The notes: generated by a model not told the origin, from the sequence alone. Positions 3,049 through 39,545 are shown, counted from the stretch's first letter. The stretch: DNA of 42,702 bases from Candidatus Moranbacteria bacterium GW2011_GWC2_37_8 (GCA_000992165.1 LBTS01000001.1:705-43406); one strand, 5' to 3'. A program made the numbers and translations.

Positions 3049-4138
3049 AATGTAATCCTTTTAACGCTAGACCAATAGCTGTTGAGTATTGAACTGATTG
3101 GCTTTTCTCAATGGCTGGCAATTCTTTTCCAATTTTCATATTTATCCAGGGATTTCCAAATTCAATCGTTCTGCCTAATTTTTTTGATAAATAAGGCACG
3201 ATACCTTTAGTGTTTGCTCCGCCGCCACAAATAATAATCTTATCGATACTCTTAGAATATTTCAGTCCTGTCAGATAAAAATCTATCGATTGGTCAATTT
3301 CCTGAGCAAAATTTTCCAAAATTGGCTTGGATAATTTAAAGATAGCATCATTTTTAAAATCATTCCCAATTCCATATGAAATCTTAATCTTCTCCGCCTC
3401 TTCAAACGAAACGTTCATTCCTTTTGAAATTGCATCCGTAAGGGACTGCCCGCAAAGAGGAATGCTCGAAGTGAAACATGGAACACCACCTTTCGTCACG
3501 GAAAAACTCGTTCTCCTATCTCCGATATCTACGACTAAAACAGTTTCTTCATTATTACTTTCCAGTAGCAAGCTCCTAGCTTGTGCAATTGATTCAATTT
3601 CAAGACCAACAGGATCAAGTCCAGCCAATTCCAACGTTTCAATCGCCAAGTCAACGACATTTTTTGAAATTGCCACAACCAAAAGGCTTATTTTGTTTTT
3701 TTCAGGAAAAAGATTTTCTGGAATAATCTGCCAATCGTAATAGACTTGTTCTAATGGAAGCGGGATATTAGCTTCCATCTCCCATTTGACTGCTTCTTTT
3801 ATTTCAGACTCATCCATCTTTGGCACAGAAATGATACGCAAAAAAGCTTTTGTTTCAGGCAGTGAGCAAATAACCTTTTTAGTTTTTATTTTATTAGGTG
3901 ACGCTATTTCAATGGCTTTTTTAATAGCAGCAATGACTTGATCCTTATTTTGAATCTCTCCATCACTAATACAATTAGCTGGAATAGGCACTGAGCAATA
4001 ACTTGAAATACTATCTATCGAACCATTATTTTCAATTTGCACAGCCTTAATAGAAAGATCACTAAGATCTAAACCAAAGACATTGGAATCATCATTAAAA
4101 ATTTTTTTATTTAAAAAAGACATCGTTGCGTGAATCAT
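3032..4138 (-). CDS. pilM: type IV pilus assembly ATPase-fold protein PilM
   Basis: Actin-like fold signatures FGLDLSDLSIKAV, VVDIGDRRTS, IIICGGGAN. The start may be the internal Met at 4123. Confidence 0.85.
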   Translation of the reverse strand: MIHATMSFLNKKIFNDDSNVFGLDLSDLSIKAVQIENNGSIDSISSYCSVPIPANCISDGEIQNKDQVIAAIKKAIEIASPNKIKTKKVICSLPETKAFLRIISVPKMDESEIKEAVKWEMEANIPLPLEQVYYDWQIIPENLFPEKNKISLLVVAISKNVVDLAIETLELAGLDPVGLEIESIAQARSLLLESNNEETVLVVDIGDRRTSFSVTKGGVPCFTSSIPLCGQSLTDAISKGMNVSFEEAEKIKISYGIGNDFKNDAIFKLSKPILENFAQEIDQSIDFYLTGLKYSKSIDKIIICGGGANTKGIVPYLSKKLGRTIEFGNPWINMKIGKELPAIEKSQSVQYSTAIGLALKGLHYEDLS

Positions 4139-4271
4139 TAATCAAGAATTATGAATCATTAAAAATTCAATAATCCTTGTTTATCTTTTTATTTTTACTT
4201 CTTACTTTTTATTATAACTTATTTTATCTTTTTATTCCATGAATCATAATTCGTGATTCGTGATTCATGAG
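4130..4271. repeat. intergenic word repeats, GAATCAT/ATGATTC family
   Basis: GTGAATCATTA / ATGAATCATTA at 4130-4161. CATGAATCATAATTCGTGATTCGTGATTCATGA at 4239-4270. Upstream of pilM. Confidence 0.7.
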
Positions 4272-6380: not shown

Positions 6381-7747
6381 AATGGATTAATTGTAATATC
6401 TTTTTCCGTAAGATTAGACACTATTATATCATCCTCCTTAGTCTCATATCCCGCCGCCTGCACAGTTATATGATATTGCACATTTTGAAGAGGAGCAACG
6501 ATATCTCTTGGAAAATATACCTGCCCGAATTGATCCGTAATTAAAGTCTGTTCATAGGAAAGACTTTCATTTTCAACCGTCACGGTTGCATCTGAAATAG
6601 GTGTTGGCGGCATTGTTGCCGGTATATCAGTATAGTCAACAACTCTTAAAAACAATGCTGGCGTATCTTTAGGCACTAAAATAGCATTGACATCCGTAAC
6701 GACTCCGGGATTAGCAGTAAAGATTGTAGATTTAAGACCGAATGATGGCTCAACTTTCCAAAATTTATAACCATCATTATTAGTTGATGTCAGATATTCA
6801 AAAGTGTATTCACCGAAGCTTTCATCACTAAAAATAAATGAGCCAGCTGCGTCACTGCTGTGATTAGTTTTAACATAAGAATAAACAGGACCAGTATTAC
6901 CAAGAATTCGGCCACCCTCCAGCGAAAAATCAATATTTCCAATACTATTCCCCAAGGGATCAACAGTCCTGAGCTGCAAAGAGGCTGCCAGGTCAAAATA
7001 TATTGTCTTTGAGGAAATTCCAGCCAAGGTGACACTACCATGCAAATCTATCGGCTCATAAGAATTGACGGGATATGGAGGCATAGTGTCAACTGGATAA
7101 TATCCATTCTTTCTCACGATAATCTTGTATTTGTTGTTTCCTATCGCATATCCCGGAAGATAAACCTTTCCATTATCTAAAGTGTCTGTCGTATGCAGCA
7201 AAGCATCAGTGTCGGCATCTCTGATTTCAACCCTAGCACCTTCAACTGGTATTCCTGCGCTACTTATTATATTGATGCTTAAAATTCCTCCATTATATAA
7301 TTCCTCTGTTCCAGGCGGAGCGATATGTGAATACATGGTAATCTTCTTGGTTTCTCCTCCACTCAACCAACTGACTATCACCTCCACATGCTTATAATCG
7401 CCATCTTTCAAGTCAGACGAAGGATCGTTTTGGTCAGGATTATCATAATCGTCATTGGAATACGTGATATTAGTAACTACATTAAAACTAACACTACTCC
7501 TATCGATAGTCTTATTATTTTTAATTGGACCATCTTCAGTGGATTCGAGATTTTCATAGGCAACATTACGCAGTATTTCAAACTGTTCATTGGCAACTTG
7601 CGAAGCGGAAATTCTAGCCTTAGCATCTCTTAAAACGTTAGCACCACTGGCGAAAGTCCTATAAAAAGTAACGACCACTATCACCACAATCAAAGAAAAA
7701 ATCAAGGCTTCCACTAAAGTGAAACCTTTTTTATTTTTTATTTCCAT
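6377..7747 (-). CDS. large prepilin-type protein with carboxypeptidase-regulatory-like beta-sandwich repeats
   Basis: MEIKNKKG|FTLVEALIF prepilin signal, start taken at the Met at 7747. Segments such as GIPVEGARVEIRD...TDTLDNGKVYLP...YKIIVRKNGYY resemble CarboxypepD_reg domains. Confidence 0.75.
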   Translation of the reverse strand: MEIKNKKGFTLVEALIFSLIVVIVVVTFYRTFASGANVLRDAKARISASQVANEQFEILRNVAYENLESTEDGPIKNNKTIDRSSVSFNVVTNITYSNDDYDNPDQNDPSSDLKDGDYKHVEVIVSWLSGGETKKITMYSHIAPPGTEELYNGGILSINIISSAGIPVEGARVEIRDADTDALLHTTDTLDNGKVYLPGYAIGNNKYKIIVRKNGYYPVDTMPPYPVNSYEPIDLHGSVTLAGISSKTIYFDLAASLQLRTVDPLGNSIGNIDFSLEGGRILGNTGPVYSYVKTNHSSDAAGSFIFSDESFGEYTFEYLTSTNNDGYKFWKVEPSFGLKSTIFTANPGVVTDVNAILVPKDTPALFLRVVDYTDIPATMPPTPISDATVTVENESLSYEQTLITDQFGQVYFPRDIVAPLQNVQYHITVQAAGYETKEDDIIVSNLTEKDITINPL

Positions 7748-7842: not shown

Positions 7843-9069
7843 CTATTTAATATTATCCAGCATGCTATACATCGGCATAAGCATAGCTACCGCAAAAAAC
7901 CCAACAGCCGCTCCAATGACAACCATAAGCAAAGGTTCTATGACAGCTGAAAGATTTTTTGTTATCTGGTCAACTTCATCTTCATAAAATTCAGCCAACT
8001 GCAGCAGCACTACTTCCGTCTTACCAGTCTCTTCTCCAACTTGAACAATTTGCGAAACCAAAACTGGAAAAATGTCACCATGATCAGAAAGAATCTTGCT
8101 TAGACTCACACCTTTTTGAATATCCTCCACACTGCCGATTAAAACTTGTTGGTAGTAATGATTAGTTAGAGTCCTGGAAATAATTTTTAGGGCATCCACG
8201 GCGCCAACGCCACTCTTAAGAAGTGAGCTATAAATCCTAGCGAAACGTGCGCAATTCATCTGCTTTATTAATGGACTAAAAATTGGAAATTTGATTGCAA
8301 CCCAACTTACCGTTTTCTTACCACTCGGCTGTCTTAGGAAATATTGCAAAAATATCGCAACTGCAAAAAAGACAACTGCCACCATTAACCCATTGTTTTT
8401 CAATAAATTACTCATATCAACAATGAATTGTGTCATTGCTGGAAGTTTCGCATTCATATCTTTAAAGACACCCATCAATTTTGGAAGCACATATGTCAAC
8501 ATGATAATTCCAATAATAAACATCACCGTCAAAATAACCGCTGGATAAATCATGGCCCCTTTAACCTTACTTTTCAAGTCATGCTCCTTCTCTAGTTGTA
8601 CTGCCACGATTTTCAAAACTTCATCAAGATTTCCAGCTGTTTCTCCGACTCTAACCATATTAACAAAAAGTTCACCAAAAATATTTACATATTTTTCAAG
8701 ACCCTCACTCAAAGATTTCCCACTCTGTATTTCCTCATCAATATCTAAAAGAATTTTTTTAAATGATTTATTTTCTGTCTGAAGTGCCAAATTATTAACA
8801 GCGCGAGAAACCGTAAGTCCTGAAGCAACCATGATGCTTAAATTTCTTGCAAAAACCATTTTCTCTTTAAGTGGAATGGAAATGAATTTATCAAAAAAAT
8901 TAGTCTTTCCAGCTATTTTTGCTTCTTCTTCCTTAACTAATGAAATTGAAGTCACCAAATAACCTTCAGCTCGAAGTTGTTGAGCAACATTTTTTTCATC
9001 CTGAGCAACTATCTCTCCACCCTTAGTTTGCCCACTATAACTTTTGGCAGTATAAATAAATTTTGGCAC
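7843..9069 (-). CDS. pilC: type IV pilus platform protein PilC (T2SS F family)
   Basis: 408 aa with duplicated GspF-type domains and three TM regions. Sits directly downstream of pilB. Confidence 0.9.
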   Translation of the reverse strand: MPKFIYTAKSYSGQTKGGEIVAQDEKNVAQQLRAEGYLVTSISLVKEEEAKIAGKTNFFDKFISIPLKEKMVFARNLSIMVASGLTVSRAVNNLALQTENKSFKKILLDIDEEIQSGKSLSEGLEKYVNIFGELFVNMVRVGETAGNLDEVLKIVAVQLEKEHDLKSKVKGAMIYPAVILTVMFIIGIIMLTYVLPKLMGVFKDMNAKLPAMTQFIVDMSNLLKNNGLMVAVVFFAVAIFLQYFLRQPSGKKTVSWVAIKFPIFSPLIKQMNCARFARIYSSLLKSGVGAVDALKIISRTLTNHYYQQVLIGSVEDIQKGVSLSKILSDHGDIFPVLVSQIVQVGEETGKTEVVLLQLAEFYEDEVDQITKNLSAVIEPLLMVVIGAAVGFFAVAMLMPMYSMLDNIK

Positions 9070-15127: not shown

Positions 15128-15305
15128 AATAAAAGGTATTATACCCCAGGGCAGGCCCTGGACCCTTTGGGCCCGCGTTGCAGAGCTGCAAGATATTAGA
15201 CCTTTTGGTATCTGCGCTCCCGCCCACTTCGATACGCGAAGCGTTTCGGGCAGGCGTTCGGAAGTGAAAAATACTAATTTTTCACTTCGCTTGATACTAA
15301 AAAAT
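15128..15305 (+). repeat. GC-rich structured intergenic repeat, copy 1 (candidate ncRNA)
   Basis: Aligns end to end with 33191-33343. Carries hairpins CCAGGG/CCCTGG and a 12-bp GAAGTGAAAAAT/ATTTTTCACTTC stem (15261-15288), plus a copy-specific 36-nt hairpin insert (15219-15254). Confidence 0.8.
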
Positions 15306-15326
15306 GAGCCTTAATGGCTCATTTTT
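15300..15326. terminator. bidirectional terminator
   Basis: AAAAATGAGCC..GGCTCATTTTT between convergent thiI and the 257-aa membrane protein gene. Confidence 0.7.
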
Positions 15327-22042: not shown

Positions 22043-22050
22043 GTTTATGC

Positions 22051-22101
22051 CGAGGTTGCGGGAGTCAATCCGAACTTATTTGATTGAATATGGGTATTAA
22101 A
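22051..22101 (+). repeat. left copy of a ~50-bp direct repeat bracketing the abiE cassette
   Basis: CGAGGTTGCGGGAGTCAATCCGAACTTATTTGATTGAATATGGGTATTAAA matches 23549-23600 with about 5 substitutions and 1 indel. Confidence 0.85.
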
Positions 22102-22178: not shown

Positions 22179-22775
22179 ATGGATAATAAACCAGCAAAAA
22201 GAGCCTATTTAGAGGCAATATTAAGATCAGCTCGAACAGTCTTTTCTTCAAAAGACGCTGCTTTGATGTGGAATGAGAATAATGTGGCCACTATCAATGA
22301 CAGATTAAAGAAATATGTTAAAACCGGAAAATTGATCAGAGTGCATCAAGGTTTTTATGCTAAAGATGAAAATTATGACCGCATGGAGTTAGCATCTAAA
22401 ATATATACCCCCTCTTATATCAGTTTTGAAACCGTTTTGACTCGCGAAGGAATCAATTTCCAATATTACGGAAATATTTTTATTGCATCCTATTTGAATC
22501 GCGAAATTGAAGCCAATGGTCAGAAAATATCCTATGTACGCATGAAAAATTATGTATTGAGCAATGCAGTAGGAATTGAACATCGAAATGATGTCGCTTG
22601 GGCAACCAAGGAGCGCGCCTTTTTAGATCGATTATATGTCACCAAGGAATATCACTTTGATAATTTGAACCCATTGGATTGGGACAAGGTTTTTGAAATT
22701 GTGCCAATCTATAACAACAAGCGATTAGAAAAGAAGGTTAAAGAATACTATACTAATTTTGTAAACAAAAAGTAA
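22179..22775 (+). CDS. abiEi: AbiEi-family (type IV TA) antitoxin-like transcriptional regulator
   Basis: 198 aa with an N-terminal wHTH-like region (FSSKDAALMW...LKKYVKTGKLIRVHQGFY). Sits 1 nt upstream of an AbiEii-family gene. Confidence 0.65.
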   Translation: MDNKPAKRAYLEAILRSARTVFSSKDAALMWNENNVATINDRLKKYVKTGKLIRVHQGFYAKDENYDRMELASKIYTPSYISFETVLTREGINFQYYGNIFIASYLNREIEANGQKISYVRMKNYVLSNAVGIEHRNDVAWATKERAFLDRLYVTKEYHFDNLNPLDWDKVFEIVPIYNNKRLEKKVKEYYTNFVNKK

Positions 22776-22776
22776 T

Positions 22777-23469
22777 ATGTTTAATTACGCAAAACACAAA
22801 AGCATTCTATTGCAGATTCTAAAGGATGTGTACACCGACACCACCATTTCACCTTATCTCGGTTTCAAGGGTGGGACAGCTGCCTTGTTATTTTATGGAT
22901 TGAATAGAAACTCTGTCGATTTGGATTTTGATCTTTTAGACGACACTAAGGAAAAAGAAGTTTTTGAAAAGTTGCAAAAAATAGTTACCAAGTACGGCAC
23001 GGTTGAAGATTCACATATAAAACGTTTCAATCTGCTTAATGTCATTTCATACGCAACTGGGGCACAGAAAATTAAGGTTGAGGTTAACCGGAGGCAGTTC
23101 GGTTCTCACTATGAAATAAAAACATTTCTGGGAATTTCCATGTTGGTTATGACTCCGCCTGACATGTTTGCTCATAAGCTCATGGCTATGTATGAACGAA
23201 TTGGCAAAACAAGTCGGGATATTTTTGATGTGTATTATTTCTACAAACAAGGCTGGGAAATAAACAAAGAGATTGTCGAGCAAAGAGCGGAAATGTCATT
23301 CAAAGAATTGCTACTCAAATGCGTTGGAATGCTGGAAAAAACAGACAACAAACATATTCTTGATGGCTTAGGAGAATTCCTGAGCGAACAACAAAAAGAT
23401 TGGTCTCGCGCCAAACTTAAAAGTGAAACGATATTCTTTTTGAAAATGGCAGTTGAAAATGAGAAATAG
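22777..23469 (+). CDS. abiEii: AbiEii/AbiGii-family nucleotidyltransferase toxin
   Basis: LGFKGGTAALLFYGLNRNSVDLDFD motif typical of DUF1814/AbiEii nucleotidyltransferases. 230 aa. Confidence 0.8.
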   Translation: MFNYAKHKSILLQILKDVYTDTTISPYLGFKGGTAALLFYGLNRNSVDLDFDLLDDTKEKEVFEKLQKIVTKYGTVEDSHIKRFNLLNVISYATGAQKIKVEVNRRQFGSHYEIKTFLGISMLVMTPPDMFAHKLMAMYERIGKTSRDIFDVYYFYKQGWEINKEIVEQRAEMSFKELLLKCVGMLEKTDNKHILDGLGEFLSEQQKDWSRAKLKSETIFFLKMAVENEK

Positions 23470-23548
23470 ATTGCAATCTTCGAACCCATAATTCTTGCTT
23501 TAAATAAAACGAAAACAGACTCCTTTGCAGAAGTCTGTCCTCACTTGT

Positions 23549-23600
23549 CGAGGTTGTGGGAATCGATACGAACTTATTTGATTGAACATGGGTATTGAAA
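23549..23600 (+). repeat. right copy of the ~50-bp direct repeat bracketing the abiE cassette
   Basis: CGAGGTTGTGGGAATCGATACGAACTTATTTGATTGAACATGGGTATTGAAA. Confidence 0.85.
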
Positions 23601-26900: not shown

Positions 26901-28517
26901 ATGAGCAAAAACGAACAAAAAATCCACTATATCCTGTATGCACGCAAGTCATCCGAAGATGAAAGGCGCCAAGTGCAGTCTATTGAAAACCAGATTCAAA
27001 TAATGTTGGACAAAGCCAAGGCATTAAAATTGCATATCGTTGATGTTTTGCAGGAATCAAAATCAGCCAGAAAGCCAGGCAGACCAGTCTTCAATGAGAT
27101 GATGGAAAGAATCAAACGGGGTGAAGCGGATGGAATTTTAACATGGCATGCAAATCGTCTTTCAAGAAATCCATTGGATGCGGGCAATGTTCAATGGGCA
27201 CTGCAAAATGGAACTATCCGCTCAATCATGACAAATGACAGGGAATATTTACCAGAAGACAATTCTCTCATGCTTGGAATGGAATGTTCCATGTCTGAAC
27301 AATACAGCAAAGACTTAAGCAAAACCGTAAATAGGGGGCTTCTCAGAAAAGCGAAGGAGGGCTGGCTTCCAAATCTTCCACCAACTGGATATATCAATGA
27401 CAAAGTGAACAAGATAATCATCAATGACCCCGAGCGTTTTCATTTGGTTCGCAAAATTTGGGACTTGATGCTTACTGGAAACTATACTCCTCCGCAGATT
27501 CTCAAGATTGCCAATGATGAATGGGGATTCCGCACACGAAAATATGAAAAGTCTGGTGGTGGCAAACTTTCAAGAAGTGGAATCTATAAAATGCTTACCA
27601 ATGGATTTTATCTTGGCTTTTTTTACAAGAAAGGTGAACTTTTTGAAGGTAGCCATGAAAGGATGATAACTGTTGATGAATGGGACAGAGTACAGACACT
27701 CTTGGGACGCAAAGGCAAACCAAGACCAAAGAAACACTCCTTCGCTTTCACCGGTGCGATTCGTTGCGCCGAATGTCAATGTCTTATTACAGCAGAAACA
27801 AAGAAAAAAATCATCAGGAAGACTGGTGAAATTCGCAGTCACACCTACTACCATTGCACCCACAAACGAACGGACATGAAATGTTCACAGCGTAAAAACA
27901 CCTTAGAGTCAGGACTAGAACTAATGATAGAGCAAGAGTTAGACAAATATACGATACTACCAGAGTTTAAAGAATGGGCAATGGAAGAATTAAACAAGGC
28001 TAATGACAACGAGATTGAAACAAGGACTAAGATGTATGAAATGCTACATAAAGCCTATACAGAGGCACAGAAGCAACTAGACACGCTCACAAAGATGAGA
28101 TACAGAGACCTAATCAATGACGAGCAGTTTCTTAGGGAGAGCAGAATACTTGAAGCTGAAATAGCTAAGCTAAAAGAGAAATTAGGCACCACAGAGGCAC
28201 GAGCGAAGCAATGGTTGGAGCTTACCGAAAAAACCTTTGAATTCGCTACTTATGCCAGAAATGCATTCCTCAAGGGTAATGACACGCTCAGAAAAGAATT
28301 GCTTTTGACTTTAGGTCAGAACCAAATACTTGGAAACCAAATACTCACTCTACAAGCGTATGAATGGTTTGTTCCTATCAGTGAAGACTATCCAAAACTT
28401 AAAGCTGAATATGTGAAGGTTAGAACCAATAAAAAACTATCTACAAAAGCAAAAACAGATGCTCTCACATCTGTTCGTGCACACTGGTCGGGGCGCAGGG
28501 ATTCGAACCCTGTCTAA
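26901..28517 (+). CDS. large serine recombinase / integrase
   Basis: Resolvase catalytic domain (YILYARKSSEDERRQVQSIENQ, HANRLSRN), recombinase domain, zinc ribbon (CAECQC...YYHCTHK..C) and a long coiled coil. The last ~11 codons are tRNA-Pro sequence. Confidence 0.9.
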   Translation: MSKNEQKIHYILYARKSSEDERRQVQSIENQIQIMLDKAKALKLHIVDVLQESKSARKPGRPVFNEMMERIKRGEADGILTWHANRLSRNPLDAGNVQWALQNGTIRSIMTNDREYLPEDNSLMLGMECSMSEQYSKDLSKTVNRGLLRKAKEGWLPNLPPTGYINDKVNKIIINDPERFHLVRKIWDLMLTGNYTPPQILKIANDEWGFRTRKYEKSGGGKLSRSGIYKMLTNGFYLGFFYKKGELFEGSHERMITVDEWDRVQTLLGRKGKPRPKKHSFAFTGAIRCAECQCLITAETKKKIIRKTGEIRSHTYYHCTHKRTDMKCSQRKNTLESGLELMIEQELDKYTILPEFKEWAMEELNKANDNEIETRTKMYEMLHKAYTEAQKQLDTLTKMRYRDLINDEQFLRESRILEAEIAKLKEKLGTTEARAKQWLELTEKTFEFATYARNAFLKGNDTLRKELLLTLGQNQILGNQILTLQAYEWFVPISEDYPKLKAEYVKVRTNKKLSTKAKTDALTSVRAHWSGRRDSNPV

Positions 28518-28559
28518 ATGATCCCAAATCACTCGTGCTACCGTTGACACCACGCCCCG
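28485..28559 (-). tRNA. tRNA-Pro (anticodon UGG) with encoded CCA
   Basis: 75-nt cloverleaf: acceptor CGGGGCG/CGCCCCG (C1-G72), anticodon loop TTTGGGA, T-arm CAGGG-TTCGAAT-CCCTG, A73 then CCA. Confidence 0.9.
28490..28503. repeat. right copy of the 14-bp direct repeat (putative att core) inside tRNA-Pro
   Basis: GGGGCGCAGGGATT is the complement of tRNA-Pro T-loop end, T-stem 3' strand and acceptor positions 66-71. Confidence 0.8.
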
Positions 28560-28642
28560 TTACAAATTTTAAATTCTAACAACCTATTAAAATTCTACCT
28601 TTGTCTCTAAATACAGCAATCAGTAACAAAACTATCTTGTAA

Positions 28643-28671
28643 AATTTGTAACGGGGCACGCCCCACAAATT
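28643..28671 (-). terminator. hairpin 1 with GGGGCACGCCCC core, probable terminator of the GIY-YIG gene
   Basis: AATTTGT-AAC-GGGG-CACG-CCCC-ACAAATT. On the minus strand it is followed by TTTT. Confidence 0.5.
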
Positions 28672-28696
28672 AACAAGAGCTTCCGTAATCTGTCTT

Positions 28697-28735
28697 CTGA
28701 AATTTCTAACGGGGCACGCCCCAGAAGAATTTCAG
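28697..28735. repeat. hairpin 2 with the same TAACGGGGCACGCCCCA core
   Basis: CTGAAATTTCT-AAC-GGGGCACGCCCC-AGAAGAATTTCAG. The outer stem differs from hairpin 1 but still pairs. It overlaps the GIY-YIG stop codon. Confidence 0.8.
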
Positions 28736-28966
28736 TCTGTTTTTTATATACCGTTTTCCCATACCAGACTTCAAATACTTTTCCCTTGCTAAGGCATCTT
28801 TTTCGTTGTGGCAGGCTTCATAGTAAATCAGCTCAAATGGTCTACGTGGTCTGGTTGAAATATTTAAACCACCATCATGCTCAGCAACTCTCCTTTTCAG
28901 ATCATCAGTATAACCAGTATAAAACTGGCCATCCTTTAAGCTCTGCAGAACATAGACGTAGAACAT
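28706..28966 (-). CDS. small GIY-YIG nuclease family protein
   Basis: MFYVYVLQSLKDGQFYTGYTDDLKRRVAEH matches the GIY...YIG motif. 86 aa. Confidence 0.9.
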   Translation of the reverse strand: MFYVYVLQSLKDGQFYTGYTDDLKRRVAEHDGGLNISTRPRRPFELIYYEACHNEKDALAREKYLKSGMGKRYIKNRLKFFWGVPR

Positions 28967-30573: not shown

Positions 30574-30677
30574 AACAATGATTTACAGTTAGATGTTTGA
30601 CTTCTATGTGAATAGTAACACAACAACTGTAAATCTAAAAAGCAATGAGTATTATATCTTTTCCTGTTCATCATAAC

Positions 30678-30701
30678 AAAATCCCGCCTAAGCGGGATTT
30701 T
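30678..30701 (-). terminator. terminator downstream of hup
   Basis: AAAATCCCGC-CTAA-GCGGGATTTT. Confidence 0.7.
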
Positions 30702-30837
30702 GTTTCCATCTTTTGGATAATATATATCAAAAGAAATATATTTCAATATGGTAGTCCTTATTTTCAAGCGAAGCGAGAGAGATGGAAATAAATTTTCATC
30801 TCCGAGCAAGCGCAGAAACCAAGCAGTTAAAAACTGC

Positions 30838-31119
30838 TTACTTAACAGCCTCTTTCAAAGCTTTACCAGCTGTGAATTTTGGAACTGTCATTGCAGGGAT
30901 TTGGATTTTTGCTTTAGTTTGAGGATTGATTCCTTCGCGAGCAGCTCGCTGAGAAACTTTGAAAGTTCCGAATCCAGTCAATGTTACTTTGTTTCCTTGT
31001 CTGATTTCGTCGGTGATCTTTTCTTGAAGAGCTTCAAGCACTCCTTCAACTGCTTTTTTTGAAAGGTCAGTCTTAGTTGCGATTGCATCAACGAGGGCAT
31101 CTTTGTTTACATTAGCCAT
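30838..31119 (-). CDS. hup: HU family DNA-binding protein
   Basis: 93 aa. GFGTFKVSQRAAREGINPQT arm motif. GAAAGGAAGG Shine-Dalgarno upstream. Confidence 0.95.
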   Translation of the reverse strand: MANVNKDALVDAIATKTDLSKKAVEGVLEALQEKITDEIRQGNKVTLTGFGTFKVSQRAAREGINPQTKAKIQIPAMTVPKFTAGKALKEAVK

Positions 31120-32875: not shown

Positions 32876-33190
32876 ACATTTTCATTCGTTTCGTCTGGAT
32901 GGGTAATACACACTAAAGTAAGCACCTTTCGGAGCTTTATATTTTCTCTTCCAAAATCTTAGTATTGCTGTGAGAAAAATAAATCATAAGTATTCTAAAT
33001 CGCTTGTTTCCTGAGCCAAAAATCATAAACATTTTCCTTGGATTTTTTTCCAATATAAGAAAAAAGTATTTTTCAGCATTTTTAAGGTCGAAGCGTAAAA
33101 TTTGTATTACTAACCAAATCGAACCGATCAATATTAACTTAGTTACCTGCTAAGCCCCATGATAAAGCAAAAAGCCTTTTTTGTCAAAAC

Positions 33191-33343
33191 AATAAAAGGT
33201 ATTATACCCCAGGGCAGAGCCCTGGACCCTTTGGGCTTACGCAGCAGAGCTGCGAGGTATTAAGCCTTTTGATATCTGCGCTCGTTCGGAAATGAAAAAT
33301 ATTAATTTTTCATTTCGCTCACTTTGCTTGATAATAAAAAAAT
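33191..33343 (+). repeat. GC-rich structured intergenic repeat, copy 2 (candidate ncRNA)
   Basis: Same element as 15128-15305 but without the 36-nt insert. The terminal 12-bp hairpin (33289-33316) carries a compensatory G-C to A-T change relative to copy 1. Confidence 0.8.
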
Positions 33344-33466
33344 GCTAAACTAGTATCATAAAGCATAAAAACATGCGTCATTAATACAAGTGATGATATA
33401 TTTTATACCTTATATCTCTGACTTTCCAGTTAGGATTTAATAATTCCATCTTCTAAGATTAATTTT

Positions 33467-35032
33467 ATGTACAAACCAGTAGTTCTAGTGGTTCTTGATG
33501 GATGGGGCATCAGTAATAACAGCAAGGGAAACGTGCTTAAGGAAACTGAGCTTCCAACAATCGAAAAACTTGATCACTATTATCCAATGACAACTCTTCA
33601 AGCCTCAGGCATTTCCGTAGGACTTTTTTGGGGCGAATCAGGTAACAGCGAAGTTGGTCATATGGCTCTCGGTGCTGGTAAAATCGTTTATCAAAACCTG
33701 CCAAGAATCACACTTTCAATTCAAGACCGAACATTTTTTTCGAATCCAGCCTTATCCAAAGTCATGGATAGCATAAAAGAAAAAGATTCTTCACTTCATT
33801 TGATGGGGCTTATTGGACAAGGAAGTGTTCATTCATACATGGAACACCTGTATGCTATTTTGGAAATGGCGAAAGAAAAAGAGATATCCAAAGTATATGT
33901 ACATGTTTTCACTGACGGACGCGATTCACCTCAAACATCAGGAACTAAATCAATCCAGGATCTTCAAAATCACATGAAATCCATTGGGGTTGGAAAAATC
34001 GCTTCTCTTAGTGGCCGAAATTGGGGCATGGATAGGAATAACAACTGGGATCGCGTAGAAAAAGCATACCGATTAATGACTGAAGGCAAAGGGATTCAAG
34101 CTACTGATCCGATATCATGTCTGCAAGACTCTTACGCAACTGAAATTACCGACGAATACATAGAACCCTCAGTTATCATGGAAGATGGAAAACCTGTTGC
34201 AACCGTTCAAGATGGCGACGGGGTAATATTTTTCAATTTCCGTGAAGACAGGGCTCGTGAACTTACCAAAGCTTTTATTCTTCCAGGATTTGATGGGTTC
34301 CAGCGAGAATTATTGAAAATAGATTTTCTGACATTAGTTGAATATGAAAAAGACTTGCCGGTGGAAATAGCCTTTCCTCCGATCATACTTGCTGGTGGTC
34401 TTGGAGAAGTTCTAAGTGAGCATAAACTAACACAGCTTAGAATCGCAGAAACTGAAAAATATGCTCATGTTACCTATTTCTTCAATGGCGGAAAAGAAGA
34501 ACCTTGGCCAGGCGAAGACAGGGTTCTCATTCCATCACCTGCTGTTTCAAAGTTTGATGAAGCGCCAGAAATGAGCGCGTCACTCATTACTGAAAAAATA
34601 TTAGCTGCAGTTGAAGAAGAAAAATATGATTTCATTTTAGTGAATTATGCCAATGCTGATATGGTAGGTCACACAGGAAACGAAAAGGCCTGCGTTACTG
34701 CAGTTCAAACGGTAGACAAAAACCTCTCTCAACTAATTCCAGCAATTCTGAAAAAGGGAGGTTGCTTACTCATAACCGCAGACCATGGAAACGTTGAGGA
34801 TATCAAAAATTATCACACAGGACAAATAAATACTGAGCATTCCTCAAATCCTGTGCCGCTTTGGTTTATCACTGCTGACAATCATAGGGAAAAGAAATCG
34901 GAAGAAATTGTCAGACAACAAAGTGAAGTTGGAGGACTATTAAGCGACCTTGCACCAACCGTACTTGAAATTTTAGGTATACCAAAAAATGAAGGTATGA
35001 ATGGTGAAAGCTTAATACCAATGCTGAAATAG
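33467..35032 (+). CDS. gpmI: 2,3-bisphosphoglycerate-independent phosphoglycerate mutase
   Basis: VVLDGWG N-terminus, NSEVGH, ITADHGN metal-site motifs. 521 aa. Confidence 0.95.
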   Translation: MYKPVVLVVLDGWGISNNSKGNVLKETELPTIEKLDHYYPMTTLQASGISVGLFWGESGNSEVGHMALGAGKIVYQNLPRITLSIQDRTFFSNPALSKVMDSIKEKDSSLHLMGLIGQGSVHSYMEHLYAILEMAKEKEISKVYVHVFTDGRDSPQTSGTKSIQDLQNHMKSIGVGKIASLSGRNWGMDRNNNWDRVEKAYRLMTEGKGIQATDPISCLQDSYATEITDEYIEPSVIMEDGKPVATVQDGDGVIFFNFREDRARELTKAFILPGFDGFQRELLKIDFLTLVEYEKDLPVEIAFPPIILAGGLGEVLSEHKLTQLRIAETEKYAHVTYFFNGGKEEPWPGEDRVLIPSPAVSKFDEAPEMSASLITEKILAAVEEEKYDFILVNYANADMVGHTGNEKACVTAVQTVDKNLSQLIPAILKKGGCLLITADHGNVEDIKNYHTGQINTEHSSNPVPLWFITADNHREKKSEEIVRQQSEVGGLLSDLAPTVLEILGIPKNEGMNGESLIPMLK

Positions 35033-37168: not shown

Positions 37169-37176
37169 TTTGTTTA

Positions 37177-37262
37177 GAATTATGAATTATGAATTATGAA
37201 TTATGAATCATGCATTTTTGAATCAAGGATTTTTCATAATTCTTGATTCTTGATTCATGATT
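37177..37262. repeat. GAATTAT x4 tandem heptamers plus an inverted GAATCA/TGATTC word array
   Basis: GAATTAT at 37177-37204, then GAATCAT. The distal arm is CATAATTCTTGATTCTTGATTCATGATTC. Lies between the ppaC stop and the tig start. Confidence 0.9.
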
Positions 37263-38192
37263 CTATTTGCTAAGTTCTTCAGTCAGCTGCGGCACGATTT
37301 GTTTTTTGCGCGAAACCACTCCAGGAAGAGTCATCAATTTGTTTTCAGCTTCTTTGCCAAAAACTTTTTCTGCCAATTCCTTTTCAGCGTCTCCAATTAT
37401 ATACAATTGGCAATTGCCCTGCAAAATATCCACCACCATGAAAAACATGTAGTCCAAATTTTCGAGAGCTTTTTTCTTTTCAAGCGCAGCAAAAATTTCA
37501 TCTTTTTTTATGTTGACACTCTCTGGCAAAGTCGTTTCCCAAGTTCCTATTCCAACATTCTTAGAACCCATTTCAAAAGTTTTGTAATCCAAAGTAATCA
37601 CGTCTTCAATCGAAATTCCTTCCAAGCTTGATTTAGCCTTGAACATTTCAGTTACAAATTCCTGCATATCCAATTTTGCAATTTCATTTAGCTTATCAGC
37701 CAACTTCCTGTCTTCATCAGTCGTAGTAGGACTTGTGAAATTAAGCATGTCAGAAAGAATACCAGACAAAAGCAACTTTGAAGTTACTTCACTAGGAGTA
37801 ATTCCTTTTTCAAAAAACATTTTTGCTATCAAAGATGAAGTTGAACCAATTGGCTCAACTCGCACAAAGATAGGCTTCTCAGTCACGATATTGAGGTTAT
37901 GATGATCAAAAATATATTCTATTTTTCCATAATCGAGACCATCAACAATCTGTGAAGGCTGATTATGGTCAACAATAGCCGCACATTCATCATCTTCAAT
38001 TTTCTCAAAAAGTTTGGGAATTTCAACTTCCAATTTTTCCAGAATAAATTTTGTTTCATTGTTAAGCATACCTGCGCAGTAGGCTTTACTTTCTTTGCCT
38101 AAAACTTTTTCAAAATATTCTTGCGCTGCAATTGATGATACTACTGAATCAGTATCTGGATTTTTATGACCAACTATTATAATCTTTGACAT
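37263..38192 (-). CDS. ppaC: manganese-dependent inorganic pyrophosphatase (family II, DHH)
   Basis: IIVGHKNPDTDSV, VDHNQ and DHHNL motifs. 309 aa. Confidence 0.9.
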   Translation of the reverse strand: MSKIIIVGHKNPDTDSVVSSIAAQEYFEKVLGKESKAYCAGMLNNETKFILEKLEVEIPKLFEKIEDDECAAIVDHNQPSQIVDGLDYGKIEYIFDHHNLNIVTEKPIFVRVEPIGSTSSLIAKMFFEKGITPSEVTSKLLLSGILSDMLNFTSPTTTDEDRKLADKLNEIAKLDMQEFVTEMFKAKSSLEGISIEDVITLDYKTFEMGSKNVGIGTWETTLPESVNIKKDEIFAALEKKKALENLDYMFFMVVDILQGNCQLYIIGDAEKELAEKVFGKEAENKLMTLPGVVSRKKQIVPQLTEELSK

Positions 38193-38200
38193 ATATTTGA

Positions 38201-38316
38201 TTGAATCATGAATTAAGAATCAGGAATCATGTAAAACTCAGAATTCATGAAATAAGAACGAGCAATTAAAGAAAAACTTCAAAGCATGCTTCTTAATTCA
38301 TGATTCATAATTCTTG
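38201..38316. repeat. intergenic word repeats, GAATCATG / TTCATGATTC family
   Basis: TTGAATCATGAATTAAGAATCAGGAATCATG ... GAATTCATGA ... TTAATTCATGATTCATAATTCTTG between the nusA stop and the ppaC start. Confidence 0.8.
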
Positions 38317-38321
38317 TGTCT

Positions 38322-39545
38322 CTATTCAGCAGCTTCAACTTCTTCACTTTCTGTGTCATTCTTTTCTATTTCTGTGTTTTTCTGTGTTGCAACTCCAATA
38401 ACATCGATTTTCCAACCGGTTAATTTTGCAGCAAGCCTCACATTCTGTCCTTGTTTTCCAATAGCCAATGAAAGTTGATCCTCAGGAACGCTAACTTTAG
38501 CTTCCTTCCTATCTTCATTCAAGGCCACAGAAACAACTTTAGCTGGACTTATCGCAGCTGCAATATATTTCTCAGATTTTTCATTCCATTCAATGATATC
38601 AATTTTTTCACCTGCAAGTTCTTCAATGATAGCTTGCACGCGCGTTCCTTTCTGTCCGACGCAAGAACCAATCGGATCAATTCCTTCTTCATTTGAATAA
38701 ACAGCGATTTTTGTGCGGGAGCCTGCTTCACGAGCAATTGATTTGATTTCTACTGTCCCGGTAAAAATTTCAGGAACCTCCAATTCAAACAATTTACGCA
38801 CCATATCAGGATGAGTTCTACTAAGTGTGATTCCAGGCCCCTTAGGATCAGATTCTACTTTGTATAGATATACTTTCACTCGTTGTCCCATGCGAAGATT
38901 TTCACCTTGCACTTGTTCAGATGGAAAAAGAACACCAATTGATTTTCCTAAATCAATGTAGACATTTCTTCCTTCAATTCTTTGAACAGCTCCACTCACA
39001 ACTTCTCCTTCTTTACCTTTATATTCGGCAAACATCGAATCACGTTCAGCTTCACGAATTCTTTGAATGATAACTTGCTTAGCAGTTTGAGCTGCCACGC
39101 GACCGTATTCACTTTGTGGTTCAAGTTCAATTTCAATAACATCGCCAATTTTTGCATCTTTTTTCAACTTCTTGGCTTCATCAAGCAAGATATCGCGCTC
39201 AGGATTGTAGCGAGGTAATTTTTCTTCACCTTCAATCAATTCTTCATCAATTTCTTCATCTTCGCCTTCTTCTCCCTCAACAAACTCTCTAAGAGTCTCA
39301 TCAACCACATCTTTGATTAGGAAAAATTTAGCATCTCCTGCAACTTCACTAAATTTTGCATGAATTCGCTGACCACGCTTACCGTAGTCTTTTTTATATG
39401 CCGCAGATAAGGCTGCTTCGATAGTTTCAATAACAACTGCTTTTGGAATGCCTTTTTCTTCTGCAATCTGCATAATTGCACTTCCAAATTCTCCTAGTCT
39501 TGTTCCTTGTTCCTCTTTCTCCTCAGCAACTTTTTTTCGAGCCAT
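38322..39545 (-). CDS. nusA: transcription termination/antitermination factor NusA
   Basis: NTD, S1 domain (GEVVSGAVQRIEGRNVYIDLG) and two KH domains (GSCVGQKGTRVQ, AIGKQGQNVRLA). Start taken at MARKKV (39545). Confidence 0.9.
   Translation of the reverse strand: MARKKVAEEKEEQGTRLGEFGSAIMQIAEEKGIPKAVVIETIEAALSAAYKKDYGKRGQRIHAKFSEVAGDAKFFLIKDVVDETLREFVEGEEGEDEEIDEELIEGEEKLPRYNPERDILLDEAKKLKKDAKIGDVIEIELEPQSEYGRVAAQTAKQVIIQRIREAERDSMFAEYKGKEGEVVSGAVQRIEGRNVYIDLGKSIGVLFPSEQVQGENLRMGQRVKVYLYKVESDPKGPGITLSRTHPDMVRKLFELEVPEIFTGTVEIKSIAREAGSRTKIAVYSNEEGIDPIGSCVGQKGTRVQAIIEELAGEKIDIIEWNEKSEKYIAAAISPAKVVSVALNEDRKEAKVSVPEDQLSLAIGKQGQNVRLAAKLTGWKIDVIGVATQKNTEIEKNDTESEEVEAAE

Follow-up and report, generated by a model that had tools for sequence, protein, structure and literature searches.

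Introduction

REP sequences were classically proposed to stabilize upstream mRNA against 3' exonucleases, as with the malE-malF REP, and the GC clusters of yeast mitochondria and the palindromic elements of Rickettsia are short, GC-rich, self-folding modules that spread and nest in an AT-rich genome without destroying host sequences. The CPR/Patescibacteria have tiny genomes, from which, to our knowledge, almost no non-coding elements or repeats have been described. The BOX, SPRITE and RUP repeats of Streptococcus pneumoniae are small, non-coding, structured and modular, and belong to a narrow clade (Croucher et al. 2011, PMC3049150), while the CREE of Neisseria give rise to folded transcripts that an RNase either cuts or is kept from cutting (Snyder et al. 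2009, PMC2649163).

Here, we characterize a structured element in a window of 42,702 nucleotides from Candidatus Moranbacteria bacterium GW2011_GWC2_37_8 (GCA_000992165.1, LBTS01000001.1:705-43406), which is the whole stretch of DNA analyzed and from whose first letter all window positions are counted. We show that it represents a new family of dispersed repeats, which is confined to one clade, varies in insertion between relatives, folds into a covarying structure on the sense strand and carries nested GC-rich modules. Our literature searches on MITEs and on non-coding RNA motifs of the CPR/Patescibacteria yielded no description of it.

Results

Three copies of one element in the window

Copy 1 (15128-15305, plus strand) and copy 2 (33191-33342, plus strand) align end to end with 78% column identity, interrupted by a 36-nt block private to the copy 1 side, a 9-nt block private to the copy 2 side, and scattered substitutions. 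The window contains exactly two occurrences of the 16-mer CCCTGGACCCTTTGGG, with 0.05 expected by chance, and folding compared with dinucleotide shuffles gave z = -4.3 for copy 1 and z = -4.8 for copy 2. Together, these values bear out the proposal of the initial annotation that the two GC-rich plus-strand stretches are copies of a single element. The 5' part of each forms a GC island in a genome whose surrounding sequence has 32-43% G+C; in copy 1, the GC-rich stretch that had been counted by hand is located at 15143-15183. In searches with a covariance model (R1) built from the copies first found by pattern scanning, the window copies reached E-values of 1e-29 to 1e-42, with scores of 140 bits for copy 1 and 194 bits for copy 2. 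A model search with filters off confirmed a window total of exactly three copies, with no weaker one. The third, which the initial annotation lacked, is a minimal copy on the minus strand (30753-30842), consisting of a simple 5' hairpin (AAGCAGUU/AACUGCUU) followed by the core described below.

Copy 2 is the canonical full-length element. Its 5' domain (33194-33270) is closed by helix P1 (AAAAGGUAUUAUACC/GGUAUUAAGCCUUUU) around the hairpins H1 (33209-33225), H2 (33227-33235) and H3 (33240-33254), and its core (33269-33342) comprises P3a (UAUC/GAUA), P3b (GCG/UGC), a 2-bp helix, the apical hairpin HP2 (33289-33316), conserved loops and an A-rich tail. Copy 1 is full-length and atypical, bearing a 36-nt nested hairpin and having lost 9 nt that include the conserved 3' loop. 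In its 5' GC-rich domain (15128-15209, plus strand), the lead AAUAAAAGG pairs with CCUUUUGG and closes a three-hairpin junction (CCAGGG/CCCUGG, CCC/GGG and UUGCA/UGCAA). The nested GC-rich hairpin (15219-15254, plus strand) reads CCGCCCACUUCG..CGAAGCG..CGGGCAGG and lies in the 5' internal loop of the core, and HP2 (15261-15288, plus strand) reads GAAGUGAAAAAU-ACUA-AUUUUUCACUUC.

Of the features listed previously for the pair, the lead AATAAAAGGTATTATACC, the hairpin CCAGGG/CCCTGG, the segment CCCTTTGGG, the second hairpin and the 12-bp terminal hairpin were recovered. The helix previously drawn as AGATA/TATCT was replaced, since across the family UAUC pairs and covaries with GAUA of the 3' tail, and GGUAU pairs with the 5' lead. 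The 36-nt stem-loop of copy 1 was confirmed at 15219-15254 but is not private to this copy, as the same insert is present in two metagenomic copies (loci L006 and L010). Likewise, the single compensated difference reported for the terminal hairpin does preserve pairing but coincides with the 9-nt deletion in copy 1 between the tandem units TCATTTCGC/TCACTTCGC. With one of the two tandem 9-mers gone, copy 1 has no conserved 3' loop. In a model of the core, copies 1, 2 and 3 scored 35, 94.5 and 76.6 bits, respectively; the low score of copy 1 relative to copy 2 identifies it as a degenerate, partly deleted family member.

An invariant core with nested GC-rich modules

Comparison of full-length and short copies reduces the invariant unit to a core of ~75 nt that forms an irregular hairpin on the sense strand. 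Its helices are a closing and extendable P3a (UAUC/GAUA), P3b (GCG/CGC), a 2-bp helix that divides the loop, and a 12-bp apical hairpin, which in most copies is GGAAAUGAAAAAU..AUUUUUCAUUUC; its single strands are short conserved C/U-rich loops and, at the 3' end, the A-rich tail GAUAAUAAA. Read from 5' to 3', an element begins with a 5' hairpin that is free in sequence and starts with AAUAAA, and continues through UAUC, one unpaired base, GCG, a C/U-rich loop and the 12-bp hairpin, followed by GCUCRCUU, CGC, UU, GAUA and AUAAA. Readings of the CGCU-rich loops as boxA/nut-like or rut-like were set aside as no more than a loose resemblance.

The 5' hairpin ahead of the core varies in sequence, and in full-length copies it is AAAAGGUAUUAUACC...GGUAUUAAGCCUUUU enclosing three GC-rich hairpins. 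This three-hairpin module occupies the hairpin loop with GGUAUUA direct repeats on both flanks, and a minimal copy in locus L044 reads AAAAGGCAUUAAGCCUUUU, precisely the remainder once the module between the GGUAUUA repeats is taken out. The module would thus have been either inserted into the loop or lost via recombination between these repeats. Further GC-rich hairpins are nested in loops, including the 36-nt hairpin of copy 1, L006 and L010, a 20-nt hairpin in L006 and larger ones in L030. The sequence of the 20-nt insert of L006 recurs unchanged in the same metagenome as a free-standing terminator stem (L012 13822-13841), which suggests that small GC-rich hairpins may be copied from place to place. 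At its own locus, on the minus strand, the L012 stem is CCTGCCTACCGGCAGGCAGG followed by TTTTT, an ordinary terminator. A coding function for the element was discarded, as the short ORFs across copies lie in differing frames and indels interrupt every reading frame.

Covariation on the sense strand

The core alignment for covariation comprised 16 sequences, with 500 shuffles and slid 3' partners as controls. Pairing was possible in 91% of the cells and double-sided changes occurred at 9 of the 18 pairs, a number matched by 0 of the 500 shuffles, while sliding the 3' partners left 35-49% of the cells paired. For the full-length copies (n = 12), the corresponding figures were 97% of cells and 10 of 41 pairs, in an alignment that was fitted to the model and therefore leans toward pairing. 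The question raised by the initial annotation of whether substitutions remain structure-preserving once more copies are collected is thereby answered in its favor. P3a changes from UAUC/GAUA to UUUC/GAAA, AAUC/GAUU, AGUC/GAUU and UGUC/GACA, and the apical hairpin from GGAAAUG/CAUUUC to GGAGAUG/CAUCUC, GGAUGUG/CACAUC and GUGAGU/ACUCA, its top being exchanged wholesale for GC-rich sequence in the copy at L007 7444, in L021 and in L027. Among full-length copies, CGCAGC/GCUGCG is replaced by CGAGGC/GCCUCG or CGCGGC/GCCGCG, and CCAGGG/CCCUGG by CGGGG/CCCCG. Sequence conservation among these full-length copies could simply reflect recent spread. Alignment-free minimum free energy folds of four minimal copies gave the same helices.

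On the sense strand, G.U pairs are found in 20 cells at 6 pairs and A.C pairs in 3 cells at 2 pairs. This excess of G.U assigns the structure to the sense strand; since G.T pairs are also tolerated in single-stranded DNA, such strand-specific pairing is no proof of an RNA. With compensated helices and conserved unpaired nucleotides, the core has the generic properties of a conserved structured RNA motif.

Distribution among related Moranbacteria

The family includes ~20 further copies in related Moranbacteria contigs. The first were obtained with one pattern scan each of genome and metagenome collections, which returned a GTDB MAG (L001) and three JGI contigs (L006, L007/L010/L012 and L008). 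The R1 search added the diverged copies at L012 9250, at L007 7444 and at 30842-30753 (minus strand) in the window. Syntenic loci of relatives, reached via homologues of iPGM and ThiI, contributed copies in L020, L021, L023, L025, L027, L030 and L044, of which that in L030 is a truncated, degenerate member lacking the 5' strand of P3. Copies outside the window are thus found in L001, L006, L007 (two), L010, L012 (two), L020 (two), L021, L023, L025 (two), L027 (two), L030 and L044. No copy was present in L028 or L029, although their iPGM sequences are 81% and 77% identical. The repeat is restricted to a sub-clade of Candidatus Moranbacteria (Patescibacteria/CPR), and in one Moranbacteria clade its density, extrapolated from loci fetched through neighboring genes, is ~1 copy per 10-15 kb. 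Protein names and exact protein matches assign the window to Candidatus Moranbacteria of aquifer metagenomes. The short contigs L017-L019 terminate inside or right beside copy 2, which is the expected behavior of an assembly-breaking repeat.

Pattern hits in L002-L005, L009, L011, L013 and L014 were set aside as chance matches within unrelated DNA. Three viral IMG/VR contigs, of ~51-55% G+C, carry core-like segments (L031 6450-6519, which equals L032 1112-1181, and L043 9041-9081), in which CUCACGCUCGG, a hairpin and CGCUCGCUUA are accompanied by a closing helix. These were not counted as copies: the L043 segment lies inside an antisense ORF of 178 aa, so that its likeness and that of L031 to the core may be coincidence or coding similarity, and a possible coding motif, SEREQ, is common to both.

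Two further observations concern the loci themselves. The MAG of L001 and L030 (GCA_964609855.1, CAZSTB01) is titled 'uncultured Bdellovibrionales', a label that looks wrong given its 86% iPGM identity, conserved gene order and repeat in common with Moranbacteria. Just 5' of a repeat copy in L007, a GC-rich and apparently structured stretch (7140-7340) has no Rfam match at gathering thresholds.

Insertion between the promoter boxes of iPGM

Copy 2 lies between the -35 and -10 boxes of the ancestral iPGM promoter. In four relatives (L020, L021, L023 and L025), the region upstream of iPGM reads TTGTCA-N17-TAnnnT with no element, representing empty sites. In the window, copy 2 sits 4 nt past TTGTCA, and if it is taken out along with one AATAAAA, the spacer ahead of TAAACT is again exactly 17 nt; in this comparison, any target duplication of 0-7 nt fits equally well. 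The insertion brings a promoter-like site, TTGATA-17-TAGTAT (33328-33356, plus strand), to which copy 2 contributes the -35 hexamer with its 3' end, and which, ahead of the iPGM start codon at 33467, is likely a replacement promoter for this gene.

A conserved block at 33159-33187 (minus strand) in the window and in relatives, TTTTTGTCAAAG, reads as back-to-back -35 boxes of divergent promoters. Of this pair, TTGACA-17-TATCAT on the minus strand, probably serving RNase Y, is untouched by copy 2, and TTGTCA-17-TAnnnT points toward iPGM. Divergent promoter regions, in which sense-strand transcription is not evident, harbor copy 2, the copy at L021 2351 and several more.

Copies downstream of genes

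Copy 1 begins 17 nt past the stop codon of thiI (15111). Directly behind the copy lies a bidirectional intrinsic terminator (15305-15326; UGAGCC-UUAAU-GGCUCA followed by U5) that serves thiI and the convergent gene and is host sequence outside the repeat. The earlier placement of copy 1 in the thiI 3' region, ahead of a common terminator, is therefore correct. The corresponding site is empty in L023, where the terminator directly follows the stop codon, and in L047, where 18 nt separate the stop codon from the convergent gene, indicating that copy 1 is an insertion as well. In L044, the spacer downstream of thiI (7183-7500) holds another GC-rich, strongly folding insert of ~300 nt that ends with TTGATAATAAAAA; it has no match to the repeat models and was rejected as a family member.

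Copy 3 begins at the HU stop codon (gene at 30838-31119, minus strand), and a terminator follows at ~30675-30705. Orthologous copies that directly follow and overlap the HU stop codon are present in the window, in L020 (269-356) and in L025 (6837-6921). In these three species, the loops are kept and the stems differ, with GGAGAUG/CAUCUC, GGAUGUG/CACAUC and GUGAGU/ACUCA in the apical hairpin and UUUC/GAAA, AAUC/GAUU and AGUC/GAUU in P3a. Constant loops on differing stems indicate selection in place, at the resident HU locus.

Other short copies likewise sit at orthologous sites immediately behind stop codons, those of pilin-like genes and AbiEi. L023 and L025 have one between two pilin-like genes, and the minimal copy of L044 (2838-2930, minus strand) exactly fills the gap from the stop codon of a 198-aa ORF to the ATG of an AbiEii toxin, with that stop codon falling within the 5' strand of the first hairpin. 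Copies between same-strand ORFs are found in L012 (two), in L023/L025 and at L027 589. Relative to flanking genes of the same direction, 7 copies are in sense and 2 in antisense orientation, a suggestive difference that does not reach significance. A replication-strand bias was considered and set aside, as the strand count against GC skew (7 to 4) is uninformative and confounded by gene orientation.

Element class and mode of insertion

The element is small, non-coding, multi-copy and polymorphic for presence or absence, traits that it shares with MITEs. No terminal inverted repeats link the two ends in the three copies; long inverted repeats are internal only, formed by the 5' lead with the middle of the element and by the apical hairpin. 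All copies start and end with AATAAA(A), and nothing is duplicated outside these motifs. Of the MITE traits that the initial annotation had named as a possible refutation of its reading, the terminal inverted repeats are absent. The motif at the left junction and right end is compatible with the oriented insertion of IS200/IS605-derived palindrome-associated elements 3' of a short fixed motif, in a manner that involves neither terminal inverted repeats nor target site duplication. Full-length copies are recent insertions at AAUAAA(A) sites between genes, their status as insertions being shown by the empty sites of relatives. In L020, the full copy at 9004 occupies the center of a 21-nt AT-rich palindrome, where the window carries other sequence.

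No transposase was seen beside any copy, and the Pfam lists of ~0.4 Mb of related loci contain no Y1_Tnp or RAYT. The 75-200-nt multi-helix unit carries no REP tag (GTAG or CGTC), and its 5' hairpin or junction has no sequence in common with HP2, as the similar left and right hairpins of IS200/IS605-type elements would. The element behaves as a small structured bacterial repeat and lacks defining traits of MITE, REP and IS200-type elements. A BLAST search of copy 2 against phage and plasmid collections gave no match.

Rfam 15 returned no match to the element at gathering thresholds in the whole window and four related loci, or at E<=10 for the three copies, and only tRNAs and terminator-driven noise were reported; the best overlapping match was mir-2242 at 25.8 bits, with a gathering score of 70. 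The absence of a known Rfam family agrees with the initial annotation. An intrinsic-terminator test found 0 terminator-like sites in the elements, where the AU-rich apical hairpin is followed by GCUCRCUUCGCUUGAUAAUAAA with no U-run. A promoter of the element's own, via TATTAT in the lead, was discarded, as the spacing to any flanking -35 box is wrong.

We also considered that copies 1 and 2 might be attL and attR of an 18-kb island between them, and rejected this because copies occur singly in relatives, the third copy intervenes and synteny is conserved. Avd-like genes nearby raised the possibility of template and variable repeats of a DGR, which was dismissed, as the copies do not code for protein and their differences show no specificity for adenine.

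Other repeats in the window

The window holds several unrelated repeats. Direct repeats of 54 nt at 22048-22101 and 23546-23599, which are 87% identical, bracket the adjacent ORFs 22179-22775 and 22777-23469, the latter with an AbiEii domain in the Pfam list; the whole may be a mobile toxin-antitoxin cassette. Repeats of 40 nt with the GC hairpin ACGGGGCACGCCCCA at 28629-28668 and 28687-28726 adjoin a tRNA (28488-28559, minus strand), a GIY-YIG ORF (28706-28966, minus strand) and a large serine recombinase gene (26901-28517), and this region may be an integration site. AT-rich heptamer arrays (GAATTAT/GAATCAT) at 4131-4182, 37176-37266 and 38191-38328 recur in either orientation across a number of intergenic regions, flanking the DHH-family gene.

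Discussion

We infer that the element is a repeat of the non-autonomous type, the sense transcript of which would serve as a 3' or intercistronic RNA structure, a reading of both function and way of moving that we hold with a probability of roughly 0.6. A copy downstream of a same-strand gene would be transcribed as the 3' end of the mRNA or as its intercistronic part, where the stable structure and AU-rich tail could form a processing and 3'-end-protecting element. Protection of the upstream cistron, be it HU, the major pilin-like protein, the AbiEi antitoxin or ThiI, would raise its level relative to the genes that follow. In addition, the 3' end of the element could donate a -35 box, as it seems to do at iPGM. 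Such a 3'-protecting role would resemble proposals made for REP, ERIC, BOX and Correia elements (PMC3049150, PMC2649163, PMC2817692).

The principal alternative, which we regard as unlikely, is that the repeat is purely selfish DNA with no RNA role, left over from a strand-specific single-stranded DNA transposon (IS200/IS605-PATE or REP-like) that an HUH/Y1 enzyme mobilized. The enzyme would then recognize the hairpins and conserved flanks, with AATAAA at the left flank and right end as its target and cleavage motifs. The ends fit this account insofar as they lack terminal inverted repeats and any target duplication past the common AATAAA(A), but the hairpins at the two sides share no sequence, in contrast to IS200/IS605 ends, and the Pfam lists of the ~0.4 Mb of related loci contain neither Y1_Tnp nor RAYT. 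Strand-specific pairing also speaks for it; the HU orthologues, which do not move, nevertheless change in a compensatory manner with loops kept, pointing to selection at the resident locus and not only in transposition. Similarly, insertion polymorphism, insertions beside or within palindromes and terminators, and the antisense or untranscribed-looking positions of the copies at L001, L020 9004 and L007 7444 and of copy 2 are all natural for selfish DNA, whereas the exact fit of minimal copies from stop to start codon is not.

A bolder version of the RNA reading, which we consider doubtful, would make the core a functional RNA device of the CPR, protein-binding or self-processing, that is placed between stop and start codons and sets relative cistron output. 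It would have spread without terminal inverted repeats, possibly in an RNA-templated manner, with the nested GC hairpins being independent mini mobile elements comparable to mitochondrial GC clusters.

The initial annotation had proposed an undescribed structured repeat or ncRNA. Its first half stands, as the element is multi-copy, insertion-polymorphic and clade-restricted. The same properties, in copies with no promoter or terminator of their own, disfavor a stand-alone ncRNA gene, and we judge it improbable that the copies are independently transcribed small RNA genes encoding trans-acting sRNAs or other stand-alone ncRNAs. A stable conserved structure with covariation and conserved unpaired C/U-rich segments, which might be seeds or protein-binding sites, would be expected of such genes, and a terminator does follow within 50 nt after copies 1 and 3 of the window (w1 and w3) and the copy at L007 7444; many other copies have no terminator and adjoin start codons. 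At the opposite end, the stop codon of the preceding gene marks the start of copies or lies within them, their upstream flanks are unrelated, and no promoter-like site precedes copy 1. Degenerate or truncated members (copy 1 and L030) and differences in presence or absence among close relatives also argue against this explanation.

Slightly more improbable still is that the core works as an RNA device that switches pairings, either catalytic or responsive to a ligand or protein; a self-cleaving ribozyme and a switch for translational coupling would be examples. Both the AAUAAAAGG at the 5' side and the AAUAAAA tail at the 3' side are able to pair with CCUUUUGAU, so that alternative pairings S1:S2 and S2:S3 can be read in the sequence, and in several copies a stop codon falls within hairpin 1, on its 5' strand, and a start codon comes right past the tail. 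The loop nucleotides are conserved in orthologues while stems covary, but copy 1 has lost the 3' loop and L030 the 5' strand of P3; moreover, no ribozyme or riboswitch model shows similarity even at E<=10, and the neighboring genes have no common function. Finally, a similarity due to chance or low complexity, for which the AT-rich context and nothing more could be cited, is already refuted by E-values of 1e-29 to 1e-42, an expectation of 0.05 for the 16-mer and the many copies in other genomes.

What distinguishes the family is the combination of covarying helices with conserved loops, placement at the stop codons of highly expressed genes, promoter-rewiring insertions and nested GC-rich modules. 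We consider the element a concrete candidate for post-transcriptional control, and for repeat spread that does not depend on terminal inverted repeats, in uncultured organisms. It is also useful as a marker of assembly breaks in Moranbacteria metagenome bins.

Among described systems, the BOX, SPRITE and RUP repeats are alike in being multi-copy, extensively structured, variable in the number of internal modules and confined to a narrow clade. They are also frequently co-transcribed with their neighbors, are thought to affect expression and are mostly fixed in place with rare new insertions (PMC3049150). There is no sequence relationship, and a BOX element is an A-B(n)-C array, whereas the Moranbacteria repeat is a fixed core plus a 5' hairpin with nested GC inserts; the latter is further set apart by in-place compensatory evolution, by conserved loops at orthologous sites and by its CPR host. 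CREE share a size of ~100-150 nt, many intergenic copies, insertion polymorphism between strains and promoters created at their ends (PMC2649163), but they are bounded by terminal inverted repeats of 26 bp and duplicate a TA target, in contrast to the Moranbacteria repeat, which has no terminal inverted repeats and donates a -35 box from one end only. REP and BIME sequences with their RAYT (TnpA-REP) are similarly extragenic and GC-richer than their surroundings, with hairpins after genes and strand-specific single-strand recognition (PMC2817692, PMC8266576). REP differ in being single palindromes of 20-40 nt with a GTAG or CGTC tag in alternating clusters, the Moranbacteria unit being 75-200 nt long with several helices, untagged and unclustered, and a RAYT, which is part of the REP system, was not seen with it in the Pfam lists of related loci. 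The GC clusters and Rickettsia elements have other hosts and sequences, and the Moranbacteria GC modules differ from both by nesting inside a conserved, AT-rich structured element.
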